Shown: positions 11,765 to 31,004 of the stretch, one piece after another
How the letters are laid out: every line of letters begins with the position of its first letter
Numbering within the stretch: the stretch's first letter is position 1
Assembly (NCBI GenBank): GCA_045616185.1
Contig: JAZLGG010000003.1
Span: forward strand, 9,083 to 73,082
Direction: 5' to 3'
Length of the DNA stretch: 64,000 nt
From: Paludibacteraceae bacterium
Lineage (GTDB): Bacteria; Bacteroidota; Bacteroidia; Bacteroidales; Paludibacteraceae
Position numbers and translations under genes: made by a program
The notes under the pieces: generated by a model
Seen by the model: only the letters and a program-made list of their open reading frames with translations
What the model was told of the DNA's origin: nothing
Database searches by the model: none

Positions 11765-11771
11765 CAAACAT

Positions 11772-11809
11772 AAAAAACAACTTCCGGTCGGAAGTTGTTT
11801 TTTTTTTGG
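11772..11809. terminator. bidirectional intrinsic terminator between convergent kbl and GDPD genes
   Basis: A-run, 11-bp perfect stem aaacaacttcc/ggaagttgttt (11775-11785 / 11790-11800) with loop ggtc, then a T-run. Confidence 0.8.
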
Positions 11810-11834
11810 TGGAAAAGCGGCGTATAAGGTCCAA

Positions 11835-13391
11835 CTATTTTTGCTGGCCGGATAAATGGTAGGTACGGTTGTCGCGAAAGATAAGCACCCGACCGTTGCG
11901 GACGATTTTATCCCGGTTGTCAATGTCGGAGAACGGCAGTTCATTCAAGCCGGTGGCTTTGACAACCTGTATGGTATAGGTTTGTTTGATATCATCTACA
12001 GTGGCAGTCAATGTTGCGCCCTTAACAGCCGATTTGGCGATAAGTCGTATTTGTCGTCCCATATCGTCCATCTTTTTCATATTGATGGCTCGGGCTTCCG
12101 ATATACGCCATGAAATAGCGGATGTACAACTGTCGGGCCGGACAAATGCGTCCACAAACAGAGTATCACCTATGTTCATGGTTGTATTTTCATCTATACT
12201 GAGAGTCAGTTCCTCAGCAGGATAAAGGGGGGCTGCGGTAGATATATTCCATCCGTGCAGTAAAGTGGAACCGTCGTATTCATAGACATTAACGGTAGCA
12301 GAATCCAATTGCTCATAGGCAAACAGGATGGTTGTCGCTGCCGTGGTTAAGAAATCGTTTTGTGTATAAACAACGGGGTGCTTGGTAACTTTGATATCCC
12401 GCATCTCCCATGAACCCTTGCGGGTTGTACCTTTTTCGGTAATCTGCATCTCATGTTCTTCCATCGGAAAAGAAAGGGTAGCATTTAGAGGCGATAAGCG
12501 TTCAGGTTGTGGTGACGGATTGCCAAGCGGGGTGACATACAATTTGTCAAAGGACTTGGAAAAAGGACAGATGTTGTCCCAATCCACATCCGGAAGATTT
12601 TTTTGGAGTGCAGGCGTCAAGGAGTCCGTTGTACACATATAACAACCCCATGCACATTCACTATCGTAAACATTAGACCAATCTACGACCCAAATGCCGA
12701 CCTGCAGATCATGGTCATGGCAACGTTTAACCAACTCTTGGCAGATGTTATATTGGCCGCCGCCGGAGTTGCACATGCTCGGGTTGACGCGCCATTGGTC
12801 GCACCATTGAAAAGTGCTTTCGCTCATGTTGTACATCAGCAGTTGGCATTTCACTTGGGGATAATTCGTGCGGATGTATTCCAACGATTTCTGATAGGAA
12901 GTGAGGATGATGGCTTTATCCACGAGATTGTGATTGACCATAGCCTGATATACCTGCGGAAAATTGGACATACCCTCTTGATAGAGACCGGCAGAACCTT
13001 TGATTTCCATGATGGGGAAGATGCCGAGGCTGTCAATCAGTGCGCAGAACTCGTCCACAGTCATGAGTTTACCTGTGTATGTGCGTCCGTAGCGGGTTTG
13101 TGTGAGAGTCAGTTTTTGGAGGTCAGCCAATGTGGTTTTGCTGATTTTGACTCCGGCGTGACCAAAACGATTGAGTTCATCATCGTGACTCATAACCACT
13201 TTTCCGTCAGAAGTGGTCATAAAGTCGGTTTCCACGCCGTCATAGCCATAGTGGTCCTTTGCGTTAATGAAGGCTTCTCGCGTGTTTTCTACACCATAAA
13301 TACAACCGCGATGCCCGACAAACAGGGGTTTCCATGCCATAGCCGGCAGGATAATCAAACACAGGAGAGAGGATAGGAGAAACTTTTTCAT
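11835..13391 (-). CDS. secreted glycerophosphodiester phosphodiesterase-domain protein with C-terminal beta-sandwich (Ig-like) region
   Basis: Track ORF 11835..13493(-). Start at MKKFLLSSLLCLIILPAMA (ATG 13391), downstream of a minus-strand TAnnTTTG box. GDPD motifs FVGHRGC..VENT and GVETDF..TSDGKVVMSHDD. Confidence 0.8.
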   Translation of the reverse strand: MKKFLLSSLLCLIILPAMAWKPLFVGHRGCIYGVENTREAFINAKDHYGYDGVETDFMTTSDGKVVMSHDDELNRFGHAGVKISKTTLADLQKLTLTQTRYGRTYTGKLMTVDEFCALIDSLGIFPIMEIKGSAGLYQEGMSNFPQVYQAMVNHNLVDKAIILTSYQKSLEYIRTNYPQVKCQLLMYNMSESTFQWCDQWRVNPSMCNSGGGQYNICQELVKRCHDHDLQVGIWVVDWSNVYDSECAWGCYMCTTDSLTPALQKNLPDVDWDNICPFSKSFDKLYVTPLGNPSPQPERLSPLNATLSFPMEEHEMQITEKGTTRKGSWEMRDIKVTKHPVVYTQNDFLTTAATTILFAYEQLDSATVNVYEYDGSTLLHGWNISTAAPLYPAEELTLSIDENTTMNIGDTLFVDAFVRPDSCTSAISWRISEARAINMKKMDDMGRQIRLIAKSAVKGATLTATVDDIKQTYTIQVVKATGLNELPFSDIDNRDKIVRNGRVLIFRDNRTYHLSGQQK

Positions 13392-13438
13392 GACATTAAT
13401 AGTAAATTTGTAAGTTTGTGGGGTACTAAAATTTCTTA

Positions 13439-13446
13439 CAAAGATA
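13439..13446 (-). promoter_or_regulatory. -7 box (TATCTTTG) for the GDPD gene
   Basis: Reverse complement of caaagata, 47 nt upstream of ATG 13391. Confidence 0.5.
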
Positions 13447-13472
13447 CAACAAAAATTTGGAGTGCGCAAATT

Positions 13473-13613
13473 TATTGTGCTTTTTGCAGGCAAAAAGGAT
13501 AGATTTATCTATACAAAACGGATTGTATTGTCCGTGTGTTGGGAGTTTACTCACAAAAAGACGGGCAATACAATTGGTTGTACGGCAAAGCCATTTGCCT
13601 GCAAAAGCACAAT
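13473..13613. repeat. nested inverted repeats in the GDPD/NRPS divergent control region
   Basis: Outer arms tattgtgctttttgcagg (13473-13490) and cctgcaaaagcacaat (13598-13613) pair over 16 positions, with one extra unpaired t in the left arm. Inner arms attgtattgtccg (13522-13534) and cgggcaatacaat (13562-13574) give 13 bp with one G-U. Confidence 0.75.
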
Positions 13614-13845
13614 CTTTGCACACTTTAATAAAGATGCGACTGTATTTTCGGGGGAATGCGTGGCGTGGGTATTGTGCGGCTTAGCAGGCGGCGTCCGAAG
13701 GTATAATAAAAATTTGGAATACGCAAATAAATTGCGCATTTTAATAAAGATGCGATTGTGTCGGGATTTTTTTCGCAGGTTGAACGAAGTGTGCAGGTGG
13801 TCCCGAGATGAACACGATGCGGACTCGTGCCCGGTTTGTTTTTTT

Positions 13846-13905
13846 TAGTGGAAAGTATTCTTGGAGTAGTGTGTAGTGGAGTAGTGGAAAGTGTCGCGTT
13901 CGGTA
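13846..13905. repeat. word-repeat block (gtggaaagt, gtagtg/ggagtag words) abutting R1 copy A
   Basis: tagtggaaagtattcttggagtagtgtgtagtggagtagtggaaagtgtcgcgttcggta. The same words occur at 6047-6075 next to R1 copy C. Confidence 0.8.
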
Positions 13906-14066
13906 ATTGGGTGGCTGTCGCCGGCGTGACCGCGATCAAACACCCCACTCGACAAGTCTCGTCGGGGGCCCCGTAGGTCGCGCTATTCTATGCGGGCGAC
14001 TGTTTCATCAAAGTGGGGACTTTTCGGGTCGCCCACTCGGCGTGCGTTCCGTCGCACGCCTTCACG
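13906..14066 (+). repeat. dispersed structured element R1, copy A (upstream of the NRPS promoter)
   Basis: Aligns with 54846-54998: attgggYggctgtcgccggcgtgaccgcga ... ggtcgcRctattctatgYgggYgactgtttcMtcaaagtggggac.t.tcgggtcgcccactcggcgtgcgttccgtcgcacgccttcacg. Contains the hairpin ggcgtgcg-ttccgt-cgcacgcc (14039-14060) and the stem gggcgac/gtcgccc (13994-14000 / 14028-14034). It has ~40 extra nt relative to copy B. Confidence 0.85.
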
Positions 14067-14107
14067 AGAAACTTAACTTAAAATTTGCGTATGCGAATTT
14101 TATTTAT

Positions 14108-14115
14108 TAACTTTG
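14108..14115 (+). promoter_or_regulatory. -7 box (TAACTTTG) for the NRPS gene
   Basis: TAnnTTTG match, 23 nt before ATG 14139. The same aaatttgcgtat...ttattaaYtttgcac module sits upstream of secA. Confidence 0.6.
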
Positions 14116-14138
14116 CACACTTTTACAAACCAGCAGTT

Positions 14139-17100
14139 ATGACATACCCGATAAATCAAAGCCAATTGGGCGTGTACTACGCCTGCCAATCGGACGGCAT
14201 AGGCGATTACGTCATCTACCGTCTGTTCCGTCTGGGCAAAGAGGTTGATAAAGACCGCCTGAGTCGCGCCATTGGACAAGCCGTGCATAACCATCCACAC
14301 CTCTTTGACACCATCGTTACCGACGAAGCCGGAGAGCCGGTTTGGAAGGTAGCGGAAAGTGCGAACGCGTTCGTTCAAAAAGAGTGGAAAGTGGAGGAAG
14401 TGAACAGCAGGGAGGCGTTGGAAAAAGATTGGGAGGAGAAAATGCCGATGGGATGCCGGCTGTTCAATATTCGGCTGATGGACACCGGCGAGGCGTTGCT
14501 GTGCCGCATTGCCATCCACCACATACTGGCCGACGGCATGTCATTCGGTATCCTATGCGACGACATCAGCCGCGCCTATAACGGCGAGCCGCTCGTTCCC
14601 GAATCGGTTGATGCACGCGCCCTGAACGTTGCGGAGGAAAAGAAACGGCAAAGTAAGGTCTATGCCGAAGAGAAAGCGTGGTACGAACAGACCTTCGGCG
14701 GGGTGGAGAGTGTGTCGCTGCCGTTGCGGGACTTGTATGCGGAAGGTGAGGAACATTACCAAACGGTATGGCGGGAAATGAGTGTCCGCCGCGAAGAAAT
14801 AAAAGAACTGTGCGCCGCTACGCAGACGGGTACGAGTATCCCGTTCACCGCCGCCTTTGCCCTGATGCTGCACGCTTTCACGGGTGACGAGCAGGTGTCG
14901 TACGCGTCGTTCTACCACGGGCGCGGAACAGGGTGTAAAGGAGTGGAGAACACAGTGACGATGGCGGTGCGGACGCTGCCGATGCTGAACGATTTGGTAC
15001 AAGTAAGGACTGTCGGGGAAATGATGCAGCAAACGGCACAAATAGTCAAGACCTTGCGCGAGAAAGACAGTGTCGGTTTTGGCGAGGTATGCGCCCTGAG
15101 CGGCATGAACAGCGAAGTGTCGTTCATTTATCAAGGCAGTATCATTGATTACACGCTGCATCTGGACGGCAAGGACTACCCGATGGAGGACATACGCAAG
15201 AACCGGCCCGGACTGAAGATAAGTGCCCAGATGATGGAGCATGACGGCGCATACAGGTTGCGTTTTGAATACCCCGCACACGAGTACAGCGAGTGCATGG
15301 TGAACGAGATGTTGGACACATACGACGAAGTACTGCGGCAGATGACAGGACGAGGTGCCGACCTTGCGCTGGCAGACCTGCACTATTGCACCGAACGGCA
15401 GACGGCCGAACTGGACGCATTCAACCGCCACGAAGACGACACCTTTGCCGAATGGGAGGGTGAGACGGTGCTGAGCCGGTTCCGACAGATAGTTGCACGT
15501 TACCCCAATCAGATAGCCGCCGTGTTCGGGGACAAAAAATTTACCTACCGTGAACTGGACCAATTGACTGACCGGATGGCGGAGAAAATAGTGGAGAGTG
15601 CGAACGCGTTCGTTCAAAAAGAGTGGAAAACGGAAAGCGGCAAGTTGCCGGTGGTGAGTATATTGATTCCGCGATGCGAACAGATGTTCATCGCGCCGCT
15701 TGCGGCGATGAAAACCGGATGCACCTATCAGCCGCTTGACCCGAGTTATCCGAAAGAGAGACTGAATTTCATGGTCAAAGACGCAGCGTGCCGGTTGCTG
15801 ATTACCACGGATGAACTGAGCGGACTGATAGACGAACCGGTGAAGAGGCTGGTGTATGATGGAACGTGGAGCGAAGGGAATAGCGGAATAGTGTGTGGAG
15901 GAATAAAGGCGGAAGATACAATGATTTTGTTGTACACGTCCGGTTCAACGGGCGTGCCCAAGGGGGTGATGCTCAGCCACAGAAACATACTGGCCTATAT
16001 TCATTGGTATATCAAACATTACAGCCTGAACAGCGAATCGCGCATAGCAGCCTACGCCAGTTTCGGCTTTGACGCCAACATGATGGACATGTATTCGGCG
16101 CTGCTGTCGGGCGGCACGCTGTACGTTATCCCTGAGGAGATACGGCTTGACCTGATGGCTTTAGGCGATTTCTTTGACCGCAACGGCATTACCTGTGCCT
16201 TCATGACAACGCAAGTGGGGCAGCAGATGATGGGCAACTACGACTCGCTCAAGACCTTGCAGCATTTGTCTATCGGCGGCGAAAAGATGATGTCTATGCC
16301 GTTGCCGACCGGTTACACGATGCACAATATATACGGTCCGACCGAATGTTCGGTGGCTATCACGGAAAAGACCGTGATCGAGAACGAGCCGAATATACCG
16401 ATAGGATGTCCGACAGAGACCACGCGGTTATATGTCGTTGACAGGTACCTGCACCGTTTGCCTATCGGTGCAGCCGGCGAACTGATAGCCTCGGGGCCGC
16501 AGGTGGGGCAGGGTTACCTCAACCGCCCCGACAAGACGGCAGAGGCGTTCATCCGCATAACGGTCAACGGCCAAGAGGAACGGTGTTACCGCACGGGTGA
16601 CATCGTGCGGTATCGCCCTAACGGAGACATCGAGTTCGTCGGACGAAAAGACGGCCAAGTCAAAATACGCGGTTTCCGCATCGAACTGAAAGAAGTGGAG
16701 GCGGTAATACGCGAATACGAGGGCATCAAAGATGTGACAGTGCAAGCCTTCGACTACCCCGACGGTGGCAAATATATCGCTGCATACATCGTGAGCGACA
16801 CAAAAACGGACATTTCGTCCCTAAACGATTTCATATTGGACCGCAAACCGCCGTATATGGTGCCGGCGGTAACGATGCAACTGGAGCACATCCCGCTGAA
16901 CGTCAATCAGAAAGTGGACAAGAAAGCATTACCCAAACCGCAGGTAGAAAGTAGTGCGTCCACCACGCCGTGTACGTTGCCGATGAACACTTTGGAGAAA
17001 AAACTGCACGAAATGATAGCCGGCATTGTCAAGAACGGAGATTTCGGTCTGGCCGACGTATTGGCGTTCTACGGATTGACTTCCATCTCGTGCATCAAAC

Positions 17101-20100
17101 TGGCGACCTTGCTGTACAAACAGTACGGTGTGATGATAGACGCCAAGACTTTTGTCAAGACGGGAACGCTGCGCGATATTGAGGAGGCGATATTGGAGAA
17201 ATGGATGGCAGGTGAGCCCGCTGCAACTGTCTCAGAAACGGAGCAGGCTGACGGACAAACCGGCGTGTGCGCACTGAGCAACGCGCAATTGGGCGTGTGC
17301 TACGAATGTATGAAGGACGAATCGGCTACGACATACAACGTGCCGATGGAGATTGTTTTTCCGGACTCGGTCCGTGCGGAAGATATCAAGAAAGCGGTGG
17401 AGCAGGCCGTTGTTCTGCATCCGTTATTACGAGCGCACTTGTGTCATGACGGCGGCGACATCGGTTTGACGACCGACACCGGACTGACAATTACATGCGA
17501 CATCGTACAGGAGCCGGTGGAGGAACTGAAGAAAACTTTTGTCCGTCCGTTCCGCCTGTTTGACGGTCCGTTGGTGCGTGCCGCCGTAACGGGGCATACG
17601 CTACTGTTGGATGCCCACCATTTGGTGATGGACGGCGGCTCGTTAAGTGTACTGATGCACGATGTATGCGATATACTGAACGGTCAACCGGTACAGCGCG
17701 AGGACTATGATTTCTTCCGCTATGTGCGTGACGAACAGCAGGCTGACACGACAGGACAAGAAGCATATTTTGAAAGCCAACTGAAGACAGTGGACGACTC
17801 GTCGTCTCTGCCGGAAGACCTGATGGGCAAAGAGCAGGAAGGTGTGATAGGCATCGTTTGGCAACCGCTTCCGATGGCGGAGATAGAGGCCTTCTGCCGT
17901 ACGCAAGGCATCACGCCGGCGGTGTTCTTCCTTGCCGCCACGGAGTATATGATAGCCCGCTACACCAATAGCCGCGACGTTCAACTGTGCACCATCTCTT
18001 CGGGGCGCAGCAACGTCAAGATAGCCAATACGGTGGGTATGTTCGTAAATACGCTGCCGCTGGTGGGGCATATAGACGACATCCGTGTGGCTGAGTTCCT
18101 GCAACGGGTAGGGGACAATTTCACCCGCACGCTGCAAAACGAGAACTATCCGTTTGCCAAGATAGCCGCCAAATACGGTACCCGTGCGGATATCGTGTAT
18201 GAATACCAAGTGGGCGTTGTGGACCGCTTTGAGGTGAGCGGCGCACCGGTAAGCGTGGACAGTTTCGGACTGGAGATTGCCAAGTTCAAGGCGGCGGTCA
18301 AGATTCAAGAACATGAAGGGCAAGTGTGCATCAAGATGCAATACAACGACGCCCTTTATTCGCGCGACTATATGGAGCGTTTTGCGGACTCGATGAAGGC
18401 CGTGTGTCTGCGTTTCATGGCTTCGCCGGACCAGCCGTTACGCAAGGTGTCCATTATGAGCCAAAAACAACAGGAGGAAGTGGCCAAACTGCACACGGTG
18501 GCTCAAGCGGATATACCCGTCCAGATTGTCTATCAGCCGCTGGAACGCTGGGCGGTGGAAACGCCGGACAAGACCGCTCTGATAGCAGTGGACGGCACCT
18601 ACACCTACCGCGAACTGAATGCACGTATCAACCGCATCGCGCATACACTGATAGCCAAGGGTGTCCGTCGTGGCGACCGCGTGGTGGTTCTGTTGCCGAG
18701 AACGAGTGCGGTGATATGTTGTCTCTACGGAGTAAGCAAGACGGGGGCTGCCTATATACCGTGCGACCCCGCCTATCCTGCCGACCGAATCAAACTGATT
18801 ACAGAGGATTCGGGTGCCAAATACGTCATTACCACGCAAGACAAAGCTGCCGAATACGGTGAGAAAGCCATTATAGCGGACGAACTGATGAACAACACGG
18901 CGGCGGATACCAATCCGAACACGGATGTCCAACCCGACGACACCGTCTATATGATATACACATCCGGCTCGACCGGACGGCCGAAAGGGGTTATTCTGCG
19001 TCACAAGGGCATTTGCAACCACAATACGGCTCACCCGTGCAACCGGCATATCTATACGGCGGCCACGGAGGGACACACGTTCCTTGCCGTGACGACCTTG
19101 TCGTTTGACATGTCGCTGAAGGAATACAGTGCGACGCTGTTCAACGGGCAGACGCTGGTGCTGGCCGGTGACGACCAGAGCAACAACCCGTTGGAACTGG
19201 CCAAACTGTTCCTTGCGACCGGTGCGGACGTGTTCAACGCGACGCCGTCGCGCCTGCTCAACTATATGGAGTCGGAAGATTTTTGTGAGGGGTTGCGCCG
19301 CTGTAAAGCCATCTATTCGGGTGGCGAACCTTATTCGGACCGTCTGTTGGACCGTCTGCACGGACTGACCAAAGCGCGTATCTTCAATACTTATGGCCCG
19401 ACGGAGACGACAGTGTCATGCAACGTAGCCGAACTGACGCATACCGACCGCATCTCTATCGGCGAGCCGCTGCTGAACGTCACAGAGTTTATCGTGGATA
19501 TTGACGGCAACGAACAGCCTGTGGGCGTCGTTGGCGAACTGTATATTGGCGGCGAAGGCGTCGGCAAGGGTTACAATAACCTGCCGGAACAGACGGCCGC
19601 ACGCTTTATCGAGTACCGCGGCATGCGCGTTTACCGTTCGGGCGACTATGCACGTTGGTTACCGGACGGCAAGGTGGTGACCCTGGGTCGCATGGACAAC
19701 CAAATCAAATTGCGCGGACTGCGTATCGAGTTGGGCGAGGTGGAAGCCGCGGTCAGCCGCTACCCGGGCATCAAACAGGTGACGGTGATGGTGCGGACGC
19801 TGAACGGCAAGGAGCATTTGGCGGCCTATTTTACTGCCGACCGCCCAATAGACGTTAACGAACTGAAGACCGAGGCAGGCAAGACCCTGACACCGTATAT
19901 GGTGCCGACCGCTTACCTGCAACTGGATGCGTTCCCCCTGACACCGAACGGCAAGACGGATATCAAACACCTGCCTGAACCGGTGATTGTGCAGACGTCC
20001 GGCGAATATGTGGCTCCTGCCAATCAGGCGGAAAAGGATTTCTGCGACATCTTCAAGAACGTGTTAGAACTGGACAAGGTGAGTGCCACGGAGTCGTTCT

Positions 20101-21506
20101 TTGAACTGGGCGGTACATCGTTGGTGGCAACGCGTGTGCTGATAGAGGCTACGCGGTTGGGCTATGCGTTGGCGTATGCGGACATCTTCAGTCATCCGTC
20201 GCCAAGGGAGTTGGCTATAGCGGCCGGCGGGGACACCCCACAACCGGCTGTGAATGATGCGGCAAGCGTAAAAAATGACGAGGGCAGTATCGTGAATCCA
20301 AAGAATGACGATGCCGTCAATAACTACGATTACACCGCCATCAACGACCTGCTGCAAAAGAACACGTTAGACTCGTTCCGCCAAGGCGAGTGTTTGCCCT
20401 TGGGCGATGTGCTGCTGACAGGTGCGACCGGTTATCTGGGAATACATATCTTCCGCGAACTGATGGAACATTATCCCGATACGAAGATACACTGTCTGTT
20501 GCGCCCCAAACGCGGTATATCCGCCGCAGAACGGTTGCGTCAGATGCTGTATTATTATTTTGAGACGAACTACGCCGAAGCGTTCGGCAGCCGCGTCTTT
20601 GTATATGAAGGCGACGTGACCGCCCCGATAAATGTGGATGTCCCTGTAGATACAGTCATCAACTGTGCCGCTATCGTCAAACATTTCAGTGAAGGCACGG
20701 AGATAGAGGATATCAATATCGGCGGAGTGAAGAACTGTATCGACTACTGCCTCAAGACGGGTGCGCGGTTCATTCAGACCAGTACCTGTTCCACGGGCGG
20801 TACCAGTATCAACGGATTCCCCGACCCGTCCATGCATTACAGTGAGCAGACCCATTACATGGGGCAGTGCCTGACGGGTAGCAAGTATGTCTATTCCAAG
20901 TTCCTGGCCGAGCGGATGACGTTGGAGGCTGTTATAGAGAAAGGGTTGGTAGCGAAGGTAGTCCGTTTGGGCAACTTGGCGGCACGTGCGCAGGACGGCG
21001 AGTTCCAAATCAATTTCCGCACCAACAGCGCGATGGGCAGGCTGCATATCTTCCAGATGTTAGGCCGGTGTGGCTATACACAGATGGCATCGCAGATGGA
21101 GTTCTCGCCGATAGACGAGGTGGCGCGCGCGGTAGTGCTGCTGGCTACCGCACCGAAGGAGTGCGTCATCTTCCATCCGTTCAACAACCACATAGTGCTG
21201 TTGGGCGATGTGATACAGGAGATGGCGAAAACACTGCATTCGCCGGTGGATTTTGTGGAAGACAATGTTTTCCAAGAGACACTGATGCAGGCCGGACAGG
21301 ACCCCGAAAAAGCCAAGATACTGCAATCGATGTTGGCGTACAAGGCAGCCGGCAAGGACGTTGTAGTTCCTTATACGAAATACAACCCCTACACTATACA
21401 GGTACTGGCGCGGCTCGGTTTCCGCTGGAACATGACATCGTGGGACTATGTGCAACGGTTTATCCGCGCTATATCGTCGTTGGACTTTTTCCAAGACCAT
21501 AGGTAA
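14139..21506 (+). CDS. bimodular non-ribosomal peptide synthetase with terminal thioester reductase (C-A-T-C-A-T-R)
   Basis: Track ORF 14085..21506(+). Start moved to ATG 14139 (MTYPINQSQLGVYY), 23 nt after a TAACTTTG box. Approximate domains: C1 14139-15420 (HHILADG 14517-14537); A1 15466-16940 (LLYTSGSTGVPKG 15927-15965, GRKDGQVKIRGFRIEL 16641-16688); T1 16975-17200 (Ser 17082-17084); C2 17271-18480 (HHLVMDG 17616-17636); A2 18520-19985 (MIYTSGSTGRPKG 18951-18989); T2 20000-20225 (GGTS, Ser 20118-20120); R 20400-21503 (GATGYLG 20421-20441, YVYSK 20886-20900). Confidence 0.95.
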   Translation: MTYPINQSQLGVYYACQSDGIGDYVIYRLFRLGKEVDKDRLSRAIGQAVHNHPHLFDTIVTDEAGEPVWKVAESANAFVQKEWKVEEVNSREALEKDWEEKMPMGCRLFNIRLMDTGEALLCRIAIHHILADGMSFGILCDDISRAYNGEPLVPESVDARALNVAEEKKRQSKVYAEEKAWYEQTFGGVESVSLPLRDLYAEGEEHYQTVWREMSVRREEIKELCAATQTGTSIPFTAAFALMLHAFTGDEQVSYASFYHGRGTGCKGVENTVTMAVRTLPMLNDLVQVRTVGEMMQQTAQIVKTLREKDSVGFGEVCALSGMNSEVSFIYQGSIIDYTLHLDGKDYPMEDIRKNRPGLKISAQMMEHDGAYRLRFEYPAHEYSECMVNEMLDTYDEVLRQMTGRGADLALADLHYCTERQTAELDAFNRHEDDTFAEWEGETVLSRFRQIVARYPNQIAAVFGDKKFTYRELDQLTDRMAEKIVESANAFVQKEWKTESGKLPVVSILIPRCEQMFIAPLAAMKTGCTYQPLDPSYPKERLNFMVKDAACRLLITTDELSGLIDEPVKRLVYDGTWSEGNSGIVCGGIKAEDTMILLYTSGSTGVPKGVMLSHRNILAYIHWYIKHYSLNSESRIAAYASFGFDANMMDMYSALLSGGTLYVIPEEIRLDLMALGDFFDRNGITCAFMTTQVGQQMMGNYDSLKTLQHLSIGGEKMMSMPLPTGYTMHNIYGPTECSVAITEKTVIENEPNIPIGCPTETTRLYVVDRYLHRLPIGAAGELIASGPQVGQGYLNRPDKTAEAFIRITVNGQEERCYRTGDIVRYRPNGDIEFVGRKDGQVKIRGFRIELKEVEAVIREYEGIKDVTVQAFDYPDGGKYIAAYIVSDTKTDISSLNDFILDRKPPYMVPAVTMQLEHIPLNVNQKVDKKALPKPQVESSASTTPCTLPMNTLEKKLHEMIAGIVKNGDFGLADVLAFYGLTSISCIKLATLLYKQYGVMIDAKTFVKTGTLRDIEEAILEKWMAGEPAATVSETEQADGQTGVCALSNAQLGVCYECMKDESATTYNVPMEIVFPDSVRAEDIKKAVEQAVVLHPLLRAHLCHDGGDIGLTTDTGLTITCDIVQEPVEELKKTFVRPFRLFDGPLVRAAVTGHTLLLDAHHLVMDGGSLSVLMHDVCDILNGQPVQREDYDFFRYVRDEQQADTTGQEAYFESQLKTVDDSSSLPEDLMGKEQEGVIGIVWQPLPMAEIEAFCRTQGITPAVFFLAATEYMIARYTNSRDVQLCTISSGRSNVKIANTVGMFVNTLPLVGHIDDIRVAEFLQRVGDNFTRTLQNENYPFAKIAAKYGTRADIVYEYQVGVVDRFEVSGAPVSVDSFGLEIAKFKAAVKIQEHEGQVCIKMQYNDALYSRDYMERFADSMKAVCLRFMASPDQPLRKVSIMSQKQQEEVAKLHTVAQADIPVQIVYQPLERWAVETPDKTALIAVDGTYTYRELNARINRIAHTLIAKGVRRGDRVVVLLPRTSAVICCLYGVSKTGAAYIPCDPAYPADRIKLITEDSGAKYVITTQDKAAEYGEKAIIADELMNNTAADTNPNTDVQPDDTVYMIYTSGSTGRPKGVILRHKGICNHNTAHPCNRHIYTAATEGHTFLAVTTLSFDMSLKEYSATLFNGQTLVLAGDDQSNNPLELAKLFLATGADVFNATPSRLLNYMESEDFCEGLRRCKAIYSGGEPYSDRLLDRLHGLTKARIFNTYGPTETTVSCNVAELTHTDRISIGEPLLNVTEFIVDIDGNEQPVGVVGELYIGGEGVGKGYNNLPEQTAARFIEYRGMRVYRSGDYARWLPDGKVVTLGRMDNQIKLRGLRIELGEVEAAVSRYPGIKQVTVMVRTLNGKEHLAAYFTADRPIDVNELKTEAGKTLTPYMVPTAYLQLDAFPLTPNGKTDIKHLPEPVIVQTSGEYVAPANQAEKDFCDIFKNVLELDKVSATESFFELGGTSLVATRVLIEATRLGYALAYADIFSHPSPRELAIAAGGDTPQPAVNDAASVKNDEGSIVNPKNDDAVNNYDYTAINDLLQKNTLDSFRQGECLPLGDVLLTGATGYLGIHIFRELMEHYPDTKIHCLLRPKRGISAAERLRQMLYYYFETNYAEAFGSRVFVYEGDVTAPINVDVPVDTVINCAAIVKHFSEGTEIEDINIGGVKNCIDYCLKTGARFIQTSTCSTGGTSINGFPDPSMHYSEQTHYMGQCLTGSKYVYSKFLAERMTLEAVIEKGLVAKVVRLGNLAARAQDGEFQINFRTNSAMGRLHIFQMLGRCGYTQMASQMEFSPIDEVARAVVLLATAPKECVIFHPFNNHIVLLGDVIQEMAKTLHSPVDFVEDNVFQETLMQAGQDPEKAKILQSMLAYKAAGKDVVVPYTKYNPYTIQVLARLGFRWNMTSWDYVQRFIRAISSLDFFQDHR
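14358..14390 (+). repeat. 33-nt exact intragenic repeat, copy 1 (in frame, encodes SANAFVQKEWK in NRPS domain C1)
   Basis: agtgcgaacgcgttcgttcaaaaagagtggaaa is identical to 15597-15629. Confidence 0.95.
15597..15629 (+). repeat. 33-nt exact intragenic repeat, copy 2 (in frame, between A1 core motifs A1 and A2)
   Basis: Identical to 14358-14390. The offset is 1239 nt (413 codons). Confidence 0.95.
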
Positions 21507-22222
21507 TGTATTTATTCTATACGCCTGACATACAGACTTGCCGGTGCTTGAGCGAAGAGGAATCGGGGCACTGCATACGCGTACTTCGCTACACACGCGG
21601 GGACGAAATCCTGCTGACGGACGGTCGTGGCGTGACCTACACGGCACGCATTACCAACCCGCACCCCAAACACTGCGAGTTTGAGGTGATAGCGTCCGAA
21701 CAACAGGTCCGCAATCGTTCGTTCCGTCTGCATCTGGCCGTGGCACCCCCCAAGAATATTGAACGGTTCGAATGGATGGTGGAGAAATGTACGGAAATAG
21801 GAGTAGATGAGATAACTCCGCTACTGTGCCGTTTTTCAGAGCGCAAACAACTGCGCACCGACCGGTTGGAGAAGATTATCCTCTCTGCCGCCAAACAGAG
21901 CCTGACGGCCTATTTGCCAAAATTGAACGAACTGACGGATTTTGACACGCTGGTACGCAACGCCGTGGAACAGGACAAGTTCATTGCGCATTGCTACAAG
22001 GAAGACAAACGGGTGTTGCGGGACGAGATAAGAACCGGGCACGACACGCTTATCCTTATCGGTCCCGAAGGCGATTTCAGCGAACAGGAGGTGCAGAATG
22101 CCCTGTCCGCCGGTTTTGTGCCGGTGTCGTTGGGAGATTCGCGATTGCGGACGGAAACAGCCGGCGTGGTGGCATGTCATACAGCGGTGCTGATGCAGTA
22201 TATAACGGAAAAAGGAGAATGA
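21506..22222 (+). CDS. rsmE: 16S rRNA (uracil1498-N3)-methyltransferase
   Basis: Whole track ORF. The ATG shares one base with the NRPS stop (TAATG). RsmE hallmarks: H..RVLR...GD, KCTEIGV, LILIGPEGDFS..E, LG.SRLRTETAG. Confidence 0.9.
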   Translation: MYLFYTPDIQTCRCLSEEESGHCIRVLRYTRGDEILLTDGRGVTYTARITNPHPKHCEFEVIASEQQVRNRSFRLHLAVAPPKNIERFEWMVEKCTEIGVDEITPLLCRFSERKQLRTDRLEKIILSAAKQSLTAYLPKLNELTDFDTLVRNAVEQDKFIAHCYKEDKRVLRDEIRTGHDTLILIGPEGDFSEQEVQNALSAGFVPVSLGDSRLRTETAGVVACHTAVLMQYITEKGE

Positions 22223-23289: not shown

Positions 23290-24537
23290 ATGCCAATCAG
23301 AACAGAAACCTTTATGGCACAGCGACTTTATTTTGCACAACAGGGTGCGAGACGGTCTTCGCGTCCTGCGGTGCGGGTTGCTTTGGCGGGAATCATCATA
23401 GGTATGACCGTAATGGTAGTAACCGTTTGTGTCGTTATCGGTTTCAAACGGACGGTTACCGACAAAATAGCGGGATTCGGGGCGCATGTACAGGTTGTCA
23501 ACTTCGACAACAACAATACCTACGAGATGAAGCCGGTGGCCGTTTCGGATTCGATGCTGACGGCAATACGCGCCTTGCCAAATGTCAAATCGGCGCACGC
23601 GTTCTGGACCAAACCGGGTATCATCAAGACCGATGACGCATTTCACGGCATCGTGCTGAAGGGGACCGGCTATTGGGACTATTTCCGCGATAATCTGGTG
23701 GCAGGCAACCTGCCGGAGAAACCGAACGAGGTATTGCTGTCCGAATTGCAGGCCAAGAAAATGAAAATTGAACTGCCGCAGGACAGCACGATGCAGCCGG
23801 CGTATATATTGTGCTATTTTGTGGGTGATGACATCCGCGTGCGCAAATTCCGCGTGACGGGTATCTACAACACCTGTTTGGGGGAGTTTGACGATTTGTT
23901 TGTCATCGGTTTCGGCGATGCGATACGACGGCTGAACGGTTGGAATGACAACCAGGCCTCCGGAGTGGAAGTGCTGGTGAAAGATTTGGCGGGTCTGGAC
24001 GACGCGGCTGACAATATCTATTTTATGACGGCCAACCGGCTGGACGCAGACGGCAATGCCTACTATACGCAGACGGTGAAGCAACTTAATCCGCAAATCT
24101 TCGCTTGGCTTGATTTGTTGGATATGAATGTGGTGATTATCATTGTGCTGATGTTGTGCGTGTCCTGCTTCAACATTGTTTCGGGGTTGATAATCCTGAT
24201 ATTGGACAGCGTACGGCTGATTGGTACGCTGAAAGCCTTGGGTGCGGACAATATGTTTGTGCGCCGTATTTTCGTGACGCAGGCGGCTATGTTGATAGGC
24301 AAGGGGATGCTTTGGGGGAATGCGGTCGGCCTGGTATTGTGCGCTGTGCAGTATTTTACGCACCTTATTCCGCTGGAGGCTTCTTCCTATTACGTCAGTT
24401 ATGTGCCGATGGCGTTCCCGTGGGGCTGGCTGATACTGCTCAACGTGGGGGTAGTGTTGCTATCGTTGGCGGTGCTGTTGGCGCCTTCGGCGATTGTTAC
24501 CAAGATTTCGCCTGCCCAAGTTATGCACTTTGAATAA
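23290..24537 (+). CDS. FtsX-family ABC transporter permease (LolC/LolE-like)
   Basis: Whole track ORF. N-terminal TM, large periplasmic MacB-like domain, and a C-terminal FtsX four-helix region (IGTLKALGADN..VRRIF). The antisense ORF 23248..24363 is a shadow. Confidence 0.85.
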   Translation: MPIRTETFMAQRLYFAQQGARRSSRPAVRVALAGIIIGMTVMVVTVCVVIGFKRTVTDKIAGFGAHVQVVNFDNNNTYEMKPVAVSDSMLTAIRALPNVKSAHAFWTKPGIIKTDDAFHGIVLKGTGYWDYFRDNLVAGNLPEKPNEVLLSELQAKKMKIELPQDSTMQPAYILCYFVGDDIRVRKFRVTGIYNTCLGEFDDLFVIGFGDAIRRLNGWNDNQASGVEVLVKDLAGLDDAADNIYFMTANRLDADGNAYYTQTVKQLNPQIFAWLDLLDMNVVIIIVLMLCVSCFNIVSGLIILILDSVRLIGTLKALGADNMFVRRIFVTQAAMLIGKGMLWGNAVGLVLCAVQYFTHLIPLEASSYYVSYVPMAFPWGWLILLNVGVVLLSLAVLLAPSAIVTKISPAQVMHFE

Positions 24538-26028: not shown

Positions 26029-26969
26029 CGGCGATAGCGGTAGAAACGCAAGGGTTTGTAAATCTGTTTATAGTCTGTGTGCTGGAAGGCGTAATAGAAG
26101 CGTACGCCGAAATTCAGATAGAGCATGCGTGACATAGCCGCCTCATGGAGCGGCTGACAGGAAACGCGAGCGGGTGGGGTATAGGTCTCTGTACTCGGTG
26201 CAAAGTCAATCAGGATGAAATGTTGTTCGTCTCGGTTCGGGGTATAACTGCTCCACGGCGCGAAATCAATGAAACCGCCCAATCCGATGAGACGGTTGTT
26301 TCTCAGTTTCCATTCGTACCCTATATCAAAAGCGAAAAGCACGTTAAAACGCGGTGCGCAGTTCCTGCCGCTAAGTCCTTTGACATCGTCCGTCATTTTG
26401 CCGGTAGCGAGTTCATCGGTTACCGTGACGCCGAACTGGCGGATATCGGCCGTGATGTGCGTGTCAGCCGCATTGATTCGTGTTTGGTATTCACTCCATA
26501 CGGGTACCATCAGTTTGGCACCGATGCCCATGGTCAGATGTTTTTTGCGCAAGACGAACATCAGCGGCACCTCTACTTGCAGTTGCTGCATCATTTCGTC
26601 GCCGCGTGTCTGTGTAGTGTAGTAAATGTCGGAGACGACCGTCTTTTTTTCCGCAACGACATAGAACGGGATATCATTCTTGACGAAATCGTCACGAATG
26701 ATGCCGGTGCGATTGTTTGTGGCTGCAAAACCGATATTGATGCCGGTGCGGATGCCAAAACCGTCGTGTTGGTTAACGGTACACCACAGTTTAGTGAAAT
26801 TGATGTCCAGCATTCCCGCTCCGCCCGGCAAGTTTAGGGTGGAAGCGTTGAAATCAACATAGCATGCTCCGCCTCCGCGCACGCCGACAGACAGTATAGA
26901 GTGGTCCGCCCGCACCGCGATAACGGTCAGCAGGCAGGCTACGAGAAATATGAGTCTTCTGTACATCAT
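26025..26969 (-). CDS. outer-membrane beta-barrel protein, family unknown
   Basis: Whole track ORF. Signal peptide MMYRRLIFLVACLLTVIAVRA. Alternating hydrophobic beta-strand pattern throughout. ATGA overlap with the upstream gene. Confidence 0.6.
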   Translation of the reverse strand: MMYRRLIFLVACLLTVIAVRADHSILSVGVRGGGACYVDFNASTLNLPGGAGMLDINFTKLWCTVNQHDGFGIRTGINIGFAATNNRTGIIRDDFVKNDIPFYVVAEKKTVVSDIYYTTQTRGDEMMQQLQVEVPLMFVLRKKHLTMGIGAKLMVPVWSEYQTRINAADTHITADIRQFGVTVTDELATGKMTDDVKGLSGRNCAPRFNVLFAFDIGYEWKLRNNRLIGLGGFIDFAPWSSYTPNRDEQHFILIDFAPSTETYTPPARVSCQPLHEAAMSRMLYLNFGVRFYYAFQHTDYKQIYKPLRFYRYRR

Positions 26970-27832
26970 TGATTAACTACGATATAGCGCAAGGTGTCGT
27001 CGCCTTCTTCAGAGTGGACATACACCATATAACATCCGGCCCTCCGTGCGGCGGTCATCCGGTAGGTCTCTTCTCCTGTGGAAGTGTTCACAGAGATGAG
27101 TTGTCCGGTCGGCGAATAGACGGTAATCGTTGTTTCGGTGTTCGGGTTAAGTCCCATCAACCGCATGGGTTGGGTCGGCAGAACGAGGTTCGGCATCAGG
27201 GCCACTTCCTGTTTGGGCATATCCGTGGAGATATAGTGTACTACGACGCTTCGCATGACATCCTGACAGAGCATGCCGGTAGAGGTGGCGGCTATGTTTA
27301 CCTCGGCGTAGTAATTGCCCGTTCCTTGGAAATTACGGTCAAGCGTCAGGTAATATCCTGTCCCGACGGGGATGTCGTCTTTGACAAGTGCATAAGCGGA
27401 ATCCACCTCGCCTACGGCTTTGAACCAAGTGACATCGGATTCGGAAAAAAGATAACCTTTTTTGTTTTGTATTGTATTGACATCCAGCATCACCAGCCAG
27501 TCGTACAATGCTACCACGGGCCAGTTGGCGTAGTCCGCACAGTTAGCGGCGAAATAAGCGATGTAAGTGAATACGTGACCGTCTTCATAGATTGTTTTTC
27601 CGTCATCGCTGATGCCGTTCAGTACCACGGTACGCGGATTGTCCGTATTGTCATCAGACCAACGGTCAAAATGGTAATCGGTATCGGGCACGGCGGTTAG
27701 CGTCAGTTCTGTCCCGCATAGTACGGAAACCGTGGCTGCAGTATCCCTATGCAGTGTCTGACCGGACGCACTCATTGCGAGTGCGCCGGTCAAAACCGCA
27801 CAAAGGATAATTAGACAGAACTGTCGGAACAT
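26966..27832 (-). CDS. secreted B-repeat-like protein with T9SS C-terminal sorting domain
   Basis: Whole track ORF with a signal peptide. N-terminal module LTAVPDTDYHFDRWSDD resembles Listeria-Bacteroides/InlB B-repeats. C-terminal ~70 aa (ITVYSPTGQLISV...AGCYMVYVHSEEGDDTLRYIVV) fit the type A Por/T9SS sorting domain. Confidence 0.7.
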   Translation of the reverse strand: MFRQFCLIILCAVLTGALAMSASGQTLHRDTAATVSVLCGTELTLTAVPDTDYHFDRWSDDNTDNPRTVVLNGISDDGKTIYEDGHVFTYIAYFAANCADYANWPVVALYDWLVMLDVNTIQNKKGYLFSESDVTWFKAVGEVDSAYALVKDDIPVGTGYYLTLDRNFQGTGNYYAEVNIAATSTGMLCQDVMRSVVVHYISTDMPKQEVALMPNLVLPTQPMRLMGLNPNTETTITVYSPTGQLISVNTSTGEETYRMTAARRAGCYMVYVHSEEGDDTLRYIVVNQ

Positions 27833-27841
27833 TGAATGAAG

Positions 27842-28678
27842 TTATTCTGTAATTTTTGTAATAGTAGCAGTATGGGATGTGCCGGAGGTATTATCAGCAC
27901 TTGCCTTTACTTTGAATTCTTTGTTATCATATTTTGCTGTCAATACAATATAGGATTGTTCGGGATACTTGTGATTCGGGTCTTGTAGATTGAACCCACC
28001 TTTAATGATGTATTGATAGTTTCCGGATTCGCCTGTCATTTCTTTACCATCGGAATCTTTTCTTATTTCAAATAAATCATCGAAAGTAGTACTACCCTCT
28101 GCTTGCATTGTCCATCCTAATTCTGTTATTTCGTTAGTTAAATTTGCATCTGAATATACTTTTATTTCCCAACCTACAAATTTATAACATGGTAGAGGTG
28201 CAACCGCAATTTCGGGTTTTTCTGAGGATTTGACAGATTTTTTGTCATATTGATCATCTGTTGCAATTTCGCCATTATCACCTGCTTTTACCGTAATATA
28301 TACACCATTCTCTTCGCATATAGCGACTATGTGATATATGTCTGTTTGGGCTATGAATGGGATATTTTCACCTGTAATTTTCTCAATAACACCACCTTTA
28401 AAATCGATTGTTTCTGTATTGAGGTTAGTAGCAGAAGCGTCGTCTTGCTGTTTTGCAATCAGTGTAAGCAGTGAAATACCTGTTGAGTTCAATTTAGTGC
28501 CGTCTTCTTTTTCAAGAAAGAGTTGCCATTCTTTAGTATGGTAACCACTTTGGGGCGTACATTGAAGTTGAATTTGATCACCACATTGAACGGTAATCGG
28601 TTCCACTGTTACATCTTGTGCATTGGCGGCGGTGATGGTGGCAAAGGCCATCAGGAAAAATAAACTTAATTTTTTCAT
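27842..28678 (-). CDS. secreted hypothetical protein with B-repeat-like modules (low-GC gene)
   Basis: Whole track ORF. Signal peptide MKKLSLFFLMAFATITAANAQ. Modules CTPQSGYHTKEWQ and PLPCYKFVGWE. One sampled 60-nt line is about 28% GC. Confidence 0.6.
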   Translation of the reverse strand: MKKLSLFFLMAFATITAANAQDVTVEPITVQCGDQIQLQCTPQSGYHTKEWQLFLEKEDGTKLNSTGISLLTLIAKQQDDASATNLNTETIDFKGGVIEKITGENIPFIAQTDIYHIVAICEENGVYITVKAGDNGEIATDDQYDKKSVKSSEKPEIAVAPLPCYKFVGWEIKVYSDANLTNEITELGWTMQAEGSTTFDDLFEIRKDSDGKEMTGESGNYQYIIKGGFNLQDPNHKYPEQSYIVLTAKYDNKEFKVKASADNTSGTSHTATITKITE

Positions 28679-28763
28679 AACTTTAATAATTTAAGTTAGT
28701 TAAACAATAAAGATTGATTTGTTTTTTGTTAATTTCTTTTAGATTGTTTGTATATGGTGAGCC

Positions 28764-30974: not shown

Positions 30975-31004
30975 ATTTTGTCCACTTATGCAAATTAAAA
31001 CTTA

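Follow-up and report, generated by a model that had tools for sequence, protein, structure and literature searches.

A stand-alone, rup-like nonribosomal peptide synthetase of a Paludibacteraceae bacterium as a divergent putative member of the gut peptide-aldehyde family

Peptide aldehydes assembled by the nonribosomal peptide synthetases (NRPSs) of gut bacteria inhibit host and microbial proteases, and most of the work on them so far has been done on Clostridia. A gut-microbiome family of such enzymes ending in a reductase (R) domain was reportedly set out by Guo et al. in Cell in 2017, and Schneider and Balskus are said to have dealt in 2018 with the rup (ruminopeptin) NRPS of Ruminococcus bromii. 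Here we describe an NRPS gene within 64,000 nucleotides of contig JAZLGG010000003.1 (assembly GCA_045616185.1, positions 9,083 to 73,082 of the forward strand) from a Paludibacteraceae bacterium, a stretch that we call the window and whose numbering is used throughout. Passages of PMC8518294 on this family state that the Clostridium cluster BGC0001686, expressed in E. coli, gave N-octanoyl-Met-Phe-H, and that ruminopeptin of Ruminococcus is an N-acylated Leu-Glu aldehyde; PMC12327764 is a further secondary source on the family's products. Set against these systems, the window NRPS is probably a functional, chromosomally embedded, rup-like bimodular synthetase of an uncultured Bacteroidales that makes an N-acyl dipeptide aldehyde; its likely product, with residue specificities that are predicted, is an N-acyl-(aliphatic)-(Glu-like) aldehyde and not a pyrazinone.

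The gene is a single intact open reading frame (ORF) on the + strand whose 2455-residue product has the order C-A-T-C-A-T-R (condensation, adenylation and carrier domains, twice, then the reductase); its Pfam content is two Condensation, two AMP-binding (each with AMP-binding_C) and two PP-binding domains, followed by a terminal NAD_binding_4/Epimerase match. The product is identical to the database protein P0239, from a 116-kb contig of NCBI source; an assembly index held no exact match to the NRPS, rsmE or kbl proteins. The gene and its domains, all on the + strand, are as follows.

14139 to 21506, +: NRPS gene (ORF listing, Pfam, identity to P0239)
14142 to 15413, +: C1 condensation domain, residues 2-425, with HHILADG at 14517-14537 (Pfam Condensation, 128 bits)
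15480 to 16913, +: A1 adenylation domain, residues 448-925 (AMP-binding 448-794, AMP-binding_C 852-925), code DAMFSGIVAK (Pfam, alignment)
17001 to 17192, +: T1 carrier domain, residues 955-1018, phosphopantetheine serine Ser982 at 17082-17084 in GLTS (Pfam PP-binding, family-conserved motif)
17262 to 18479, +: C2 condensation domain, residues 1042-1447, with HHLVMDG at 17616-17636 (Pfam)
18540 to 19955, +: A2 adenylation domain, residues 1468-1939 (AMP-binding 1468-1812, AMP-binding_C 1867-1939), code DMKNYGTVSK (Pfam, alignment)
20040 to 20216, +: T2 carrier domain, residues 1968-2026, phosphopantetheine serine Ser1994 at 20118-20120 in GGTS (Pfam, structure alignment)
20409 to 21503, +: R, thioester reductase of the short-chain dehydrogenase/reductase (SDR) type, residues 2091-2455, with TGATGYLG, STCS and YVYSK (Thr/Ser-Tyr-Lys); GATGYLG at 20421-20441, YVYSK at 20886-20900 (Pfam NAD_binding_4)

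The ORF listing opens this frame with a TTG at 14085 and closes it at 21506; since homologs align from the Met of the ATG at 14139, and since two sister contigs (L081 and L084) show DNA similarity no further upstream than 14102, 37 nt before that ATG, we take 14139 as the true start. A first-pass annotation made from the DNA letters had already read the C-A-T-C-A-T-R order in one ORF, which Pfam bears out, and every motif that it quoted was found exactly where it had placed it, including LLYTSGSTGVPKG at 15927-15965, GRKDGQVKIRGFRIEL at 16641-16688 and MIYTSGSTGRPKG at 18951-18989. It also judged correctly that the catalytic motifs are intact, which class the enzyme belongs to and that it is related to the gut R-terminated NRPSs. 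It had named loss of the R-domain triad and degeneracy of C1 as possible faults. The triad is present and aligned to solved R domains: TGATGYLG, STCS and Y2250-xxx-K2254 fall on the SDR motifs of 6VTJ, and NAD_binding_4 scores 99 bits. In C1, HHILADG and the other family-invariant residues are intact, the His motif being invariant across a 27-sequence family alignment.

When one genome for each GTDB species was scanned for relatives, 193 matches were returned, in metagenome-assembled genomes (MAGs) of gut and rumen Bacteroidales and Clostridia, and the homology was full-length (100% query coverage, 35-55% identity). The closest kin are two proteins with 94% identity from two ENA assemblies, namely the sister contigs L081 and L084, and all others are at or below 55%. 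Samples with this lineage are ERZ27247095, ERZ27247115 and ERR6929675. The relatives, which come from rumen and from horse, rabbit, mouse and human gut, fall into tiers of 50–55% (MAGs of Prevotellaceae, Muribaculaceae, Bacteroidaceae, Alistipes and "Ca. Physcousia equi"), 40–48% (Paludibacteraceae and other Bacteroidales) and 35–42% (Ruminococcus/Acutalibacteraceae, Lachnospiraceae and other Clostridia). A metagenome scan for nearer relatives with longer upstream flanks gave none above 54% identity. In a neighbor-joining tree the main Bacteroidales clade has as its sister a long branch made up of the window NRPS and L081. Judged by these comparisons, which were made with MAG relatives, none of them a labelled characterised member, the window NRPS belongs to the gut/rumen R-terminated NRPS family and to its rup-like C-A-T-C-A-T-R subfamily; no near-identical characterised ortholog was present among the sequences searched. 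It is a divergent new member of an already known peptide-aldehyde NRPS family, and nothing about its class, its chemistry or its occurrence in gut Bacteroidales MAGs is a surprise.

Diagnostic columns were read from a MAFFT alignment of 41 bimodular relatives, in which the window NRPS has all of the family signatures (HHxxxDG twice, GLTS, GGTS, DAMFSG..xK, DMKNxGTVSK, TGAxGxLG and YxxSK). Three of the five features that the first-pass annotation had singled out as unusual proved to be the family norm. This is so for the N-terminal C domain, whose HHxxxDG is intact in all aligned relatives except L050 (HHIIIDA), and for the Thr-Ser pair at both carrier sites: the T1 motif is G-L/M/V-T/S/N-S and the T2 motif GG-T/S/N-S family-wide, and GGTS is the phosphopantetheine site in the crystal structure of the modified carrier-reductase (PCP-R) fragment of Mru_0351 (6VTJ; PMC8024701), so that Thr-Ser before the carrier serine is a family trait. 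It is so, too, for the specificity codes DAMFSGIVAK and DMKNYGTVSK, which had been extracted by eye and not recognised: a manual extraction with GrsA numbering and the alignment gave the same two codes, and both are typical of the family. L003 and L005 have exactly the A1 code, which is one or two positions away from the DAMFSGLVAK/DAMFSGLVCK of many others, while that of A2 is the commonest second-module code, DMKNLGTVSK (14 of 40 aligned relatives, in both the Bacteroidales and the Ruminococcus clades), with Leu replaced by Tyr at position 299, where two relatives have Trp and one has Met. Likewise, the reported lack of an MbtH gene is correct, with no MbtH-like motif anywhere in the window; but as none of 158 related loci has one either, it is a trait of the family and not a peculiarity of this locus.

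Of the lineages compared, the Bacteroidales clade (L001, Prevotellaceae; L003 and L027, Muribaculaceae; L004, Bacteroidales; L005, Ca. Physcousia equi; L002, Bacteroidaceae; L006, Alistipes) is nearest in the tree, at 50–55% identity, and shares the R and T motifs of the window NRPS and, in L003 and L005, its A1 code; however, its loci read STAS-NRPS-(OMP, an outer-membrane protein)-MatE::HATPase-PPTase (phosphopantetheinyl transferase)-SpoIIE, whereas the window lineage, on its long sister branch, is without all of these neighbors. With the gut R-terminated family at large (Clostridium BGC0001686; rup/ruminopeptin) the window NRPS has in common the domain order, the carrier motifs GLTS/GGTS, the codes DAMFSG..xK and DMKNxGTVSK, MbtH independence and the type of R domain; it differs in having no more than 55% identity outside its own lineage, in Tyr at position 299 of A2, in in-frame inserts in C1 and A1, and in its setting, a housekeeping operon of rsmE and PAP2 with no STAS, SpoIIE phosphatase, MatE::HATPase_c_2, PPTase or outer-membrane barrel neighbor. 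AusA, the aureusimine/phevalin synthetase of S. aureus, is also bimodular with a terminal, aldehyde-releasing R domain, and that domain (4F6L/4F6C) is the second-closest solved structure to that of the window NRPS (E = 7e-39), which aligns over its whole length with it as it does with 6VTJ; unlike the window NRPS it is A-T-C-A-T-R, without an N-terminal C domain, and makes pyrazinones. We rejected AusA as the identity of the window NRPS, which has the extra N-terminal C domain and scored 968 against a cut-off of 2500 with the equivalog model NF047350 of NCBIfam. The T2-R region aligned over 496 residues (E = 1e-85) with Mru_0351 of Methanobrevibacter ruminantium M1, with GGTS, TGATGxLG, STxS and YVxSK in common; that protein differs in its archaeal host and has been solved as the PCP-R fragment alone (PMC8024701). 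This archaeal structure, 6VTJ, is the closest solved match for 20001-21503, which is consistent with transfer of the NRPS family between bacteria and a rumen methanogen. Among the relatives we also observed versions with three or more modules (3000–4100 residues; L015, L030, L040, L042, L059 and L077) and stand-alone A-T-TE proteins (TE, thioesterase) adjoining the NRPS (L015, L024, L040, L042, L047 and L048); these extra modules and partners make longer or differently primed peptide aldehydes likely there.

The surroundings of the gene are what set it apart. The order around the NRPS is histidine kinase, gdhA, kbl-like aminotransferase, GDPD (minus strand), NRPS, rsmE, PAP2, FtsX/MacB-type permease, GSCFA and RluA-type synthase, and the window ORF annotation confirms the neighbors gdhA, kbl, GDPD and rsmE that had been named earlier. 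The downstream junction is this:

21506 to 22222, +: rsmE, its ATG overlapping the NRPS stop (TAATG), with PAP2 next; the junction is also in L081 and L084

This overlap makes it probable that NRPS and rsmE are co-transcribed, and L081 and L084 match the downstream order rsmE, PAP2, FtsX, GSCFA, RluA. In searches of the whole window (tblastn, Pfam on large ORFs, motif search) there was no gene for a PPTase, MbtH, thioesterase, acyl ligase, MATE exporter or ABC-ATPase, which upholds the earlier claim that none of PPTase, MbtH, thioesterase, acyl ligase and exporter lies nearby and widens it to 64 kb. We considered the FtsX/MacB-type permease (23290-24537) as a dedicated exporter and rejected it: no partner ATPase accompanies it, it is part of a block of syntenic housekeeping genes, and it does not figure among the conserved neighbors of the family.

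By clustering the flanking ORFs of 81 related loci and annotating the clusters with Pfam, we defined an accessory set conserved in the family: a STAS protein of ~100 residues, a membrane or Cache-sensor SpoIIE/PP2C phosphatase that sometimes has its own HATPase_c_2, and a MatE exporter of ~580 residues fused at its C-terminus to an anti-sigma-kinase-type HATPase_c_2. An Sfp-type PPTase joins the set in some loci, and in those of the closest Bacteroidales so does an outer-membrane beta-barrel protein. The set occurs in Bacteroidales and Clostridia alike, and its STAS member resembles anti-sigma antagonists. For instance, in L001:214-13602, L004:9474-23518, L019, L047 and L048 the NRPS is flanked by STAS, sensor-linked SpoIIE/PP2C and MatE::HATPase_c_2 (RsbW/SpoIIAB-type). 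Counting genes within 8 kb, in the 49 loci that had at least 4 kb on both flanks, one or more of STAS, SpoIIE and MatE::HATPase lies beside the NRPS in 46 and three are bare; a PPTase is also present in 10. Such a neighborhood is an empirical trait of the present comparison, not a published definition, and the window does not have it: tblastn with family representatives, Pfam and motif searches found no STAS, SpoIIE, MatE::HATPase_c_2 or PPTase in its 64 kb. The stand-alone context is therefore genuinely unusual, and the first-pass annotation, in calling the NRPS stand-alone, had understated its rarity, since 46 of the 49 relatives keep the set. In the relatives, this set suggests partner-switching control of export or synthesis, with no obvious sigma factor; our literature search found no description of STAS, SpoIIE and MatE::HATPase beside these NRPSs.

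Despite its setting the gene is under constraint. Compared with its ortholog in L081 (94% identity) it has dN 0.030, dS 0.44 and dN/dS 0.068, with per-domain values from 0.036 (A2 and R) to 0.115 (C1), so that all domains are constrained, and three independent assemblies hold the 7.4-kb frame uninterrupted with the same rsmE junction. Together, the low dN/dS and the three intact frames are strong evidence that the gene is neither a remnant in decay nor, as the first-pass annotation had allowed, the product of a frameshift error. An NRPS maintained without local helpers would need a PPTase from another part of the genome, and perhaps export functions from there as well. Its composition, which had been called native, is indeed so (GC at third codon positions, GC3, of 0.675, against 0.63–0.75 in the surrounding genes).

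A route to the product can be proposed from these domains. A PPTase from elsewhere in the genome would convert Ser982 of T1 and Ser1994 of T2 to the holo form. A1 would load, by analogy, a hydrophobic aliphatic residue of the Leu/Ile/Val type, and C1, going by the characterised family members, would cap its amine with an acyl group from primary metabolism (acyl-CoA or acyl-ACP, i.e., bound to acyl carrier protein). A2, with Lys at position 239 of its code, is predicted to load a Glu-like acidic residue, after which C2 would make the peptide bond; the SDR-type R domain, if it follows the chemistry of the family, would use NAD(P)H for a two-electron release of the N-acyl dipeptide as a C-terminal aldehyde, which would then inhibit proteases covalently but reversibly. 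The Glu code DAKDLGVVDK is marked by Lys at position 239 and has six of ten positions in common with DMKNLGTVSK. The Ruminococcus clade with the latter code is plausibly the Leu-Glu ruminopeptin synthetase; in homology search and cluster names its labels say only "Ruminococcus sp." or "Acutalibacteraceae". A capped amine cannot cyclise, so the pyrazinone that the first-pass annotation had allowed for is unlikely if C1 is active.

Several observations weigh against this reading. The Pfam PP-binding match of T1 is 21.5 bits, barely above the cut-off of 20.8; with PPTase, exporter and acyl-donor genes missing from the 64 kb, activity would depend on genes outside our view; the link between DMKNLGTVSK and Glu rests on the assumption that the Ruminococcus clade seen here is the published rup cluster; and the lineage-specific Tyr299 may change the specificity of A2, and might give it a new second residue. 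C1 is a further difficulty. In PDB searches the single C1 sequence was too weak for a classification; a profile of 27 family C1 sequences did better and scored 184–216 bits on elongation-type C domains (BacC, TycC6, PvdL and LgrA) and lower on canonical starter (Cs) domains (SrfAA-Cs 105, RzmA-Cs 72 and CDA-C1 69 bits), so an acyl-capping role for C1 is not established by its sequence. C1 could instead be an elongation-type domain that takes a carrier-bound donor supplied in trans, i.e., an acyl-ACP of fatty acid synthesis or a T-bound amino acid or peptide of another synthetase, which would make the product a lipopeptide or tripeptide aldehyde. The far better fit to elongation domains favors this, as does the presence among the better matches of PvdL, whose C domain we take to accept a T-bound fatty acyl donor, and some relatives do have a third module or an A-T-TE protein besides the NRPS. 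However, SrfA-C, an LCL domain, also scored just 101 bits, against 105 for SrfAA-Cs, so the ranking may track lineage and not subtype; the window has no second NRPS or carrier gene, and N-acyl dipeptide aldehydes were obtained when bimodular members of the family were expressed on their own in E. coli, as passages of PMC8518294 report. On balance a donor in trans is a serious rival, but we consider it unlikely. That C1 is bypassed or inactive, leaving a dipeptide aldehyde whose free amine lets it close, in the manner of AusA, into a dihydropyrazinone or pyrazinone, seems to us decidedly doubtful: AusA is the best NCBIfam model and supplies a close R-domain structure, and the dN/dS of C1 is the highest of the catalytic domains, but that value still means strong constraint, the invariant C1 residues noted above are all in place, and AusA, which has no N-terminal C domain, gave a model score far under its cut-off. 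We hold it highly improbable that the R domain carries out a four-electron reduction to an N-acyl dipeptide alcohol; two- and four-electron R domains are indistinguishable by sequence (PMC8024701), yet the characterised family members and AusA release aldehydes (PMC8024701 and the relevant passages of PMC8518294).

The bare neighborhood also invites the idea of a silent orphan, left stranded from a cluster gained by horizontal transfer, that has no means of activation, regulation or export any longer and makes no product. In its favor are the missing STAS, SpoIIE, MatE::HATPase and PPTase genes, the rearranged upstream flank and the great rarity of the lineage (three sequences in a collection of ~15 billion); set against a dN/dS of 0.068 at a dS of 0.44, 7.4 kb free of frameshifts and stops in three assemblies, native codon usage and translational coupling to rsmE, it is very unlikely. 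We would also entertain, as a tentative and rather unlikely extension of an active synthetase making an N-acyl dipeptide aldehyde, that the NRPS has been "domesticated": its ancestor would have shed the partner-switching regulators, the MATE exporter and the PPTase, the synthetase would have been wired into the rsmE-PAP2 operon, and the aldehyde would be constitutive, with a cell-intrinsic or envelope-associated role in place of that of an effector under regulation and for export. The window NRPS adds to the family a divergent Bacteroidales member that is strongly constrained though every cluster-linked accessory gene is lost, and it can thus serve as a natural experiment on the accessory functions that the family truly requires. 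The family-wide STAS/PP2C partner-switching set with its MATE::kinase-domain fusion lies outside the window and may be the more interesting lead.

The upstream side of the gene differs between lineages, and two features were marked there.

11765 to 14101, strand not assigned: segment specific to the window lineage, comprising the low-GC GDPD gene and a 645-bp repeat-rich intergenic region (no homology in L081, L082 or L084)
14083 to 14114, +: candidate Bacteroidetes-type promoter, TTTG ~20 nt upstream of TAACTTTG (TAnnTTTG -7 box), 25 nt before the ATG (a reading of the sequence)

The GDPD gene (11835-13493, minus strand) is compositionally foreign, with GC 0.46 and GC3 0.50, and in the sister lineage (L082) the genes next to kbl are Polysacc_deac/ROK/MFS/SIS instead of GDPD and the NRPS, which suggests that the upstream boundary of the NRPS was recently rearranged or received an insertion. 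Both sister contigs (L081:1-215 and L084:1-157) stop in a tandem repeat, AATTATG/AATTAAG, that lies ~200 nt upstream of the NRPS and probably explains the shared breakpoint of two independent assemblies. The promoter candidate was read against the consensus of Bacteroides promoters; a sigma-70 scan gave no match at its position. A 28-nt motif of the form TTGCACACTTTAATAAAGATGCGA has three direct copies (13616-13643, 13732-13759 and 14113-14140), the third of which runs into the NRPS start codon, and these could be promoter or operator repeats or the starts of tiny ORFs.

Within the NRPS itself there is an in-frame repeat of two copies.

14345 to 14395, +: repeat copy 1, in C1, encoding ESANAFVQKEWK and containing the 12-nt perfect palindrome CGAACGCGTTCG
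15584 to 15634, +: repeat copy 2, in A1, with the same 32-nt core; a lineage-specific insertion of ~8 residues

The 32 nt are in frame in both copies, each encoding ESANAFVQKEWK and holding CGAACGCGTTCG, and both inserts are missing from other family members. L081 and L084 keep the A1 copy, while their C1 copy has another perfect palindrome, CGGATGCATCCG, in which two compensatory pairs are different. The pattern suggests that the gene underwent an internal duplication long ago and, more recently, gene conversion or quasi-palindrome template switching. We also considered the 51-nt repeat as a dispersed palindromic mobile element and rejected this, as the window holds only the two copies and its 12-nt palindromes number 13, against ~16 in shuffled sequence; there was thus no evidence in the window of a dispersed element behind the repeat.

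Elsewhere in the window, an Rfam search returned no RNA family. The gdhA product falls in a 90%-identity cluster with proteins from Bacteroidales, Muribaculaceae and Prevotella MAGs, and there are housekeeping genes of Bacteroidales type (MutS2, YidC, ThyA, SecA, Lgt and Fmt). At 26966-31000, where GC is 0.35–0.40, three consecutive minus-strand proteins have divergent InlB B-repeat (Flg_new_2) domains; this is probably a variable surface-protein island, and the homology to L081 breaks off within it.

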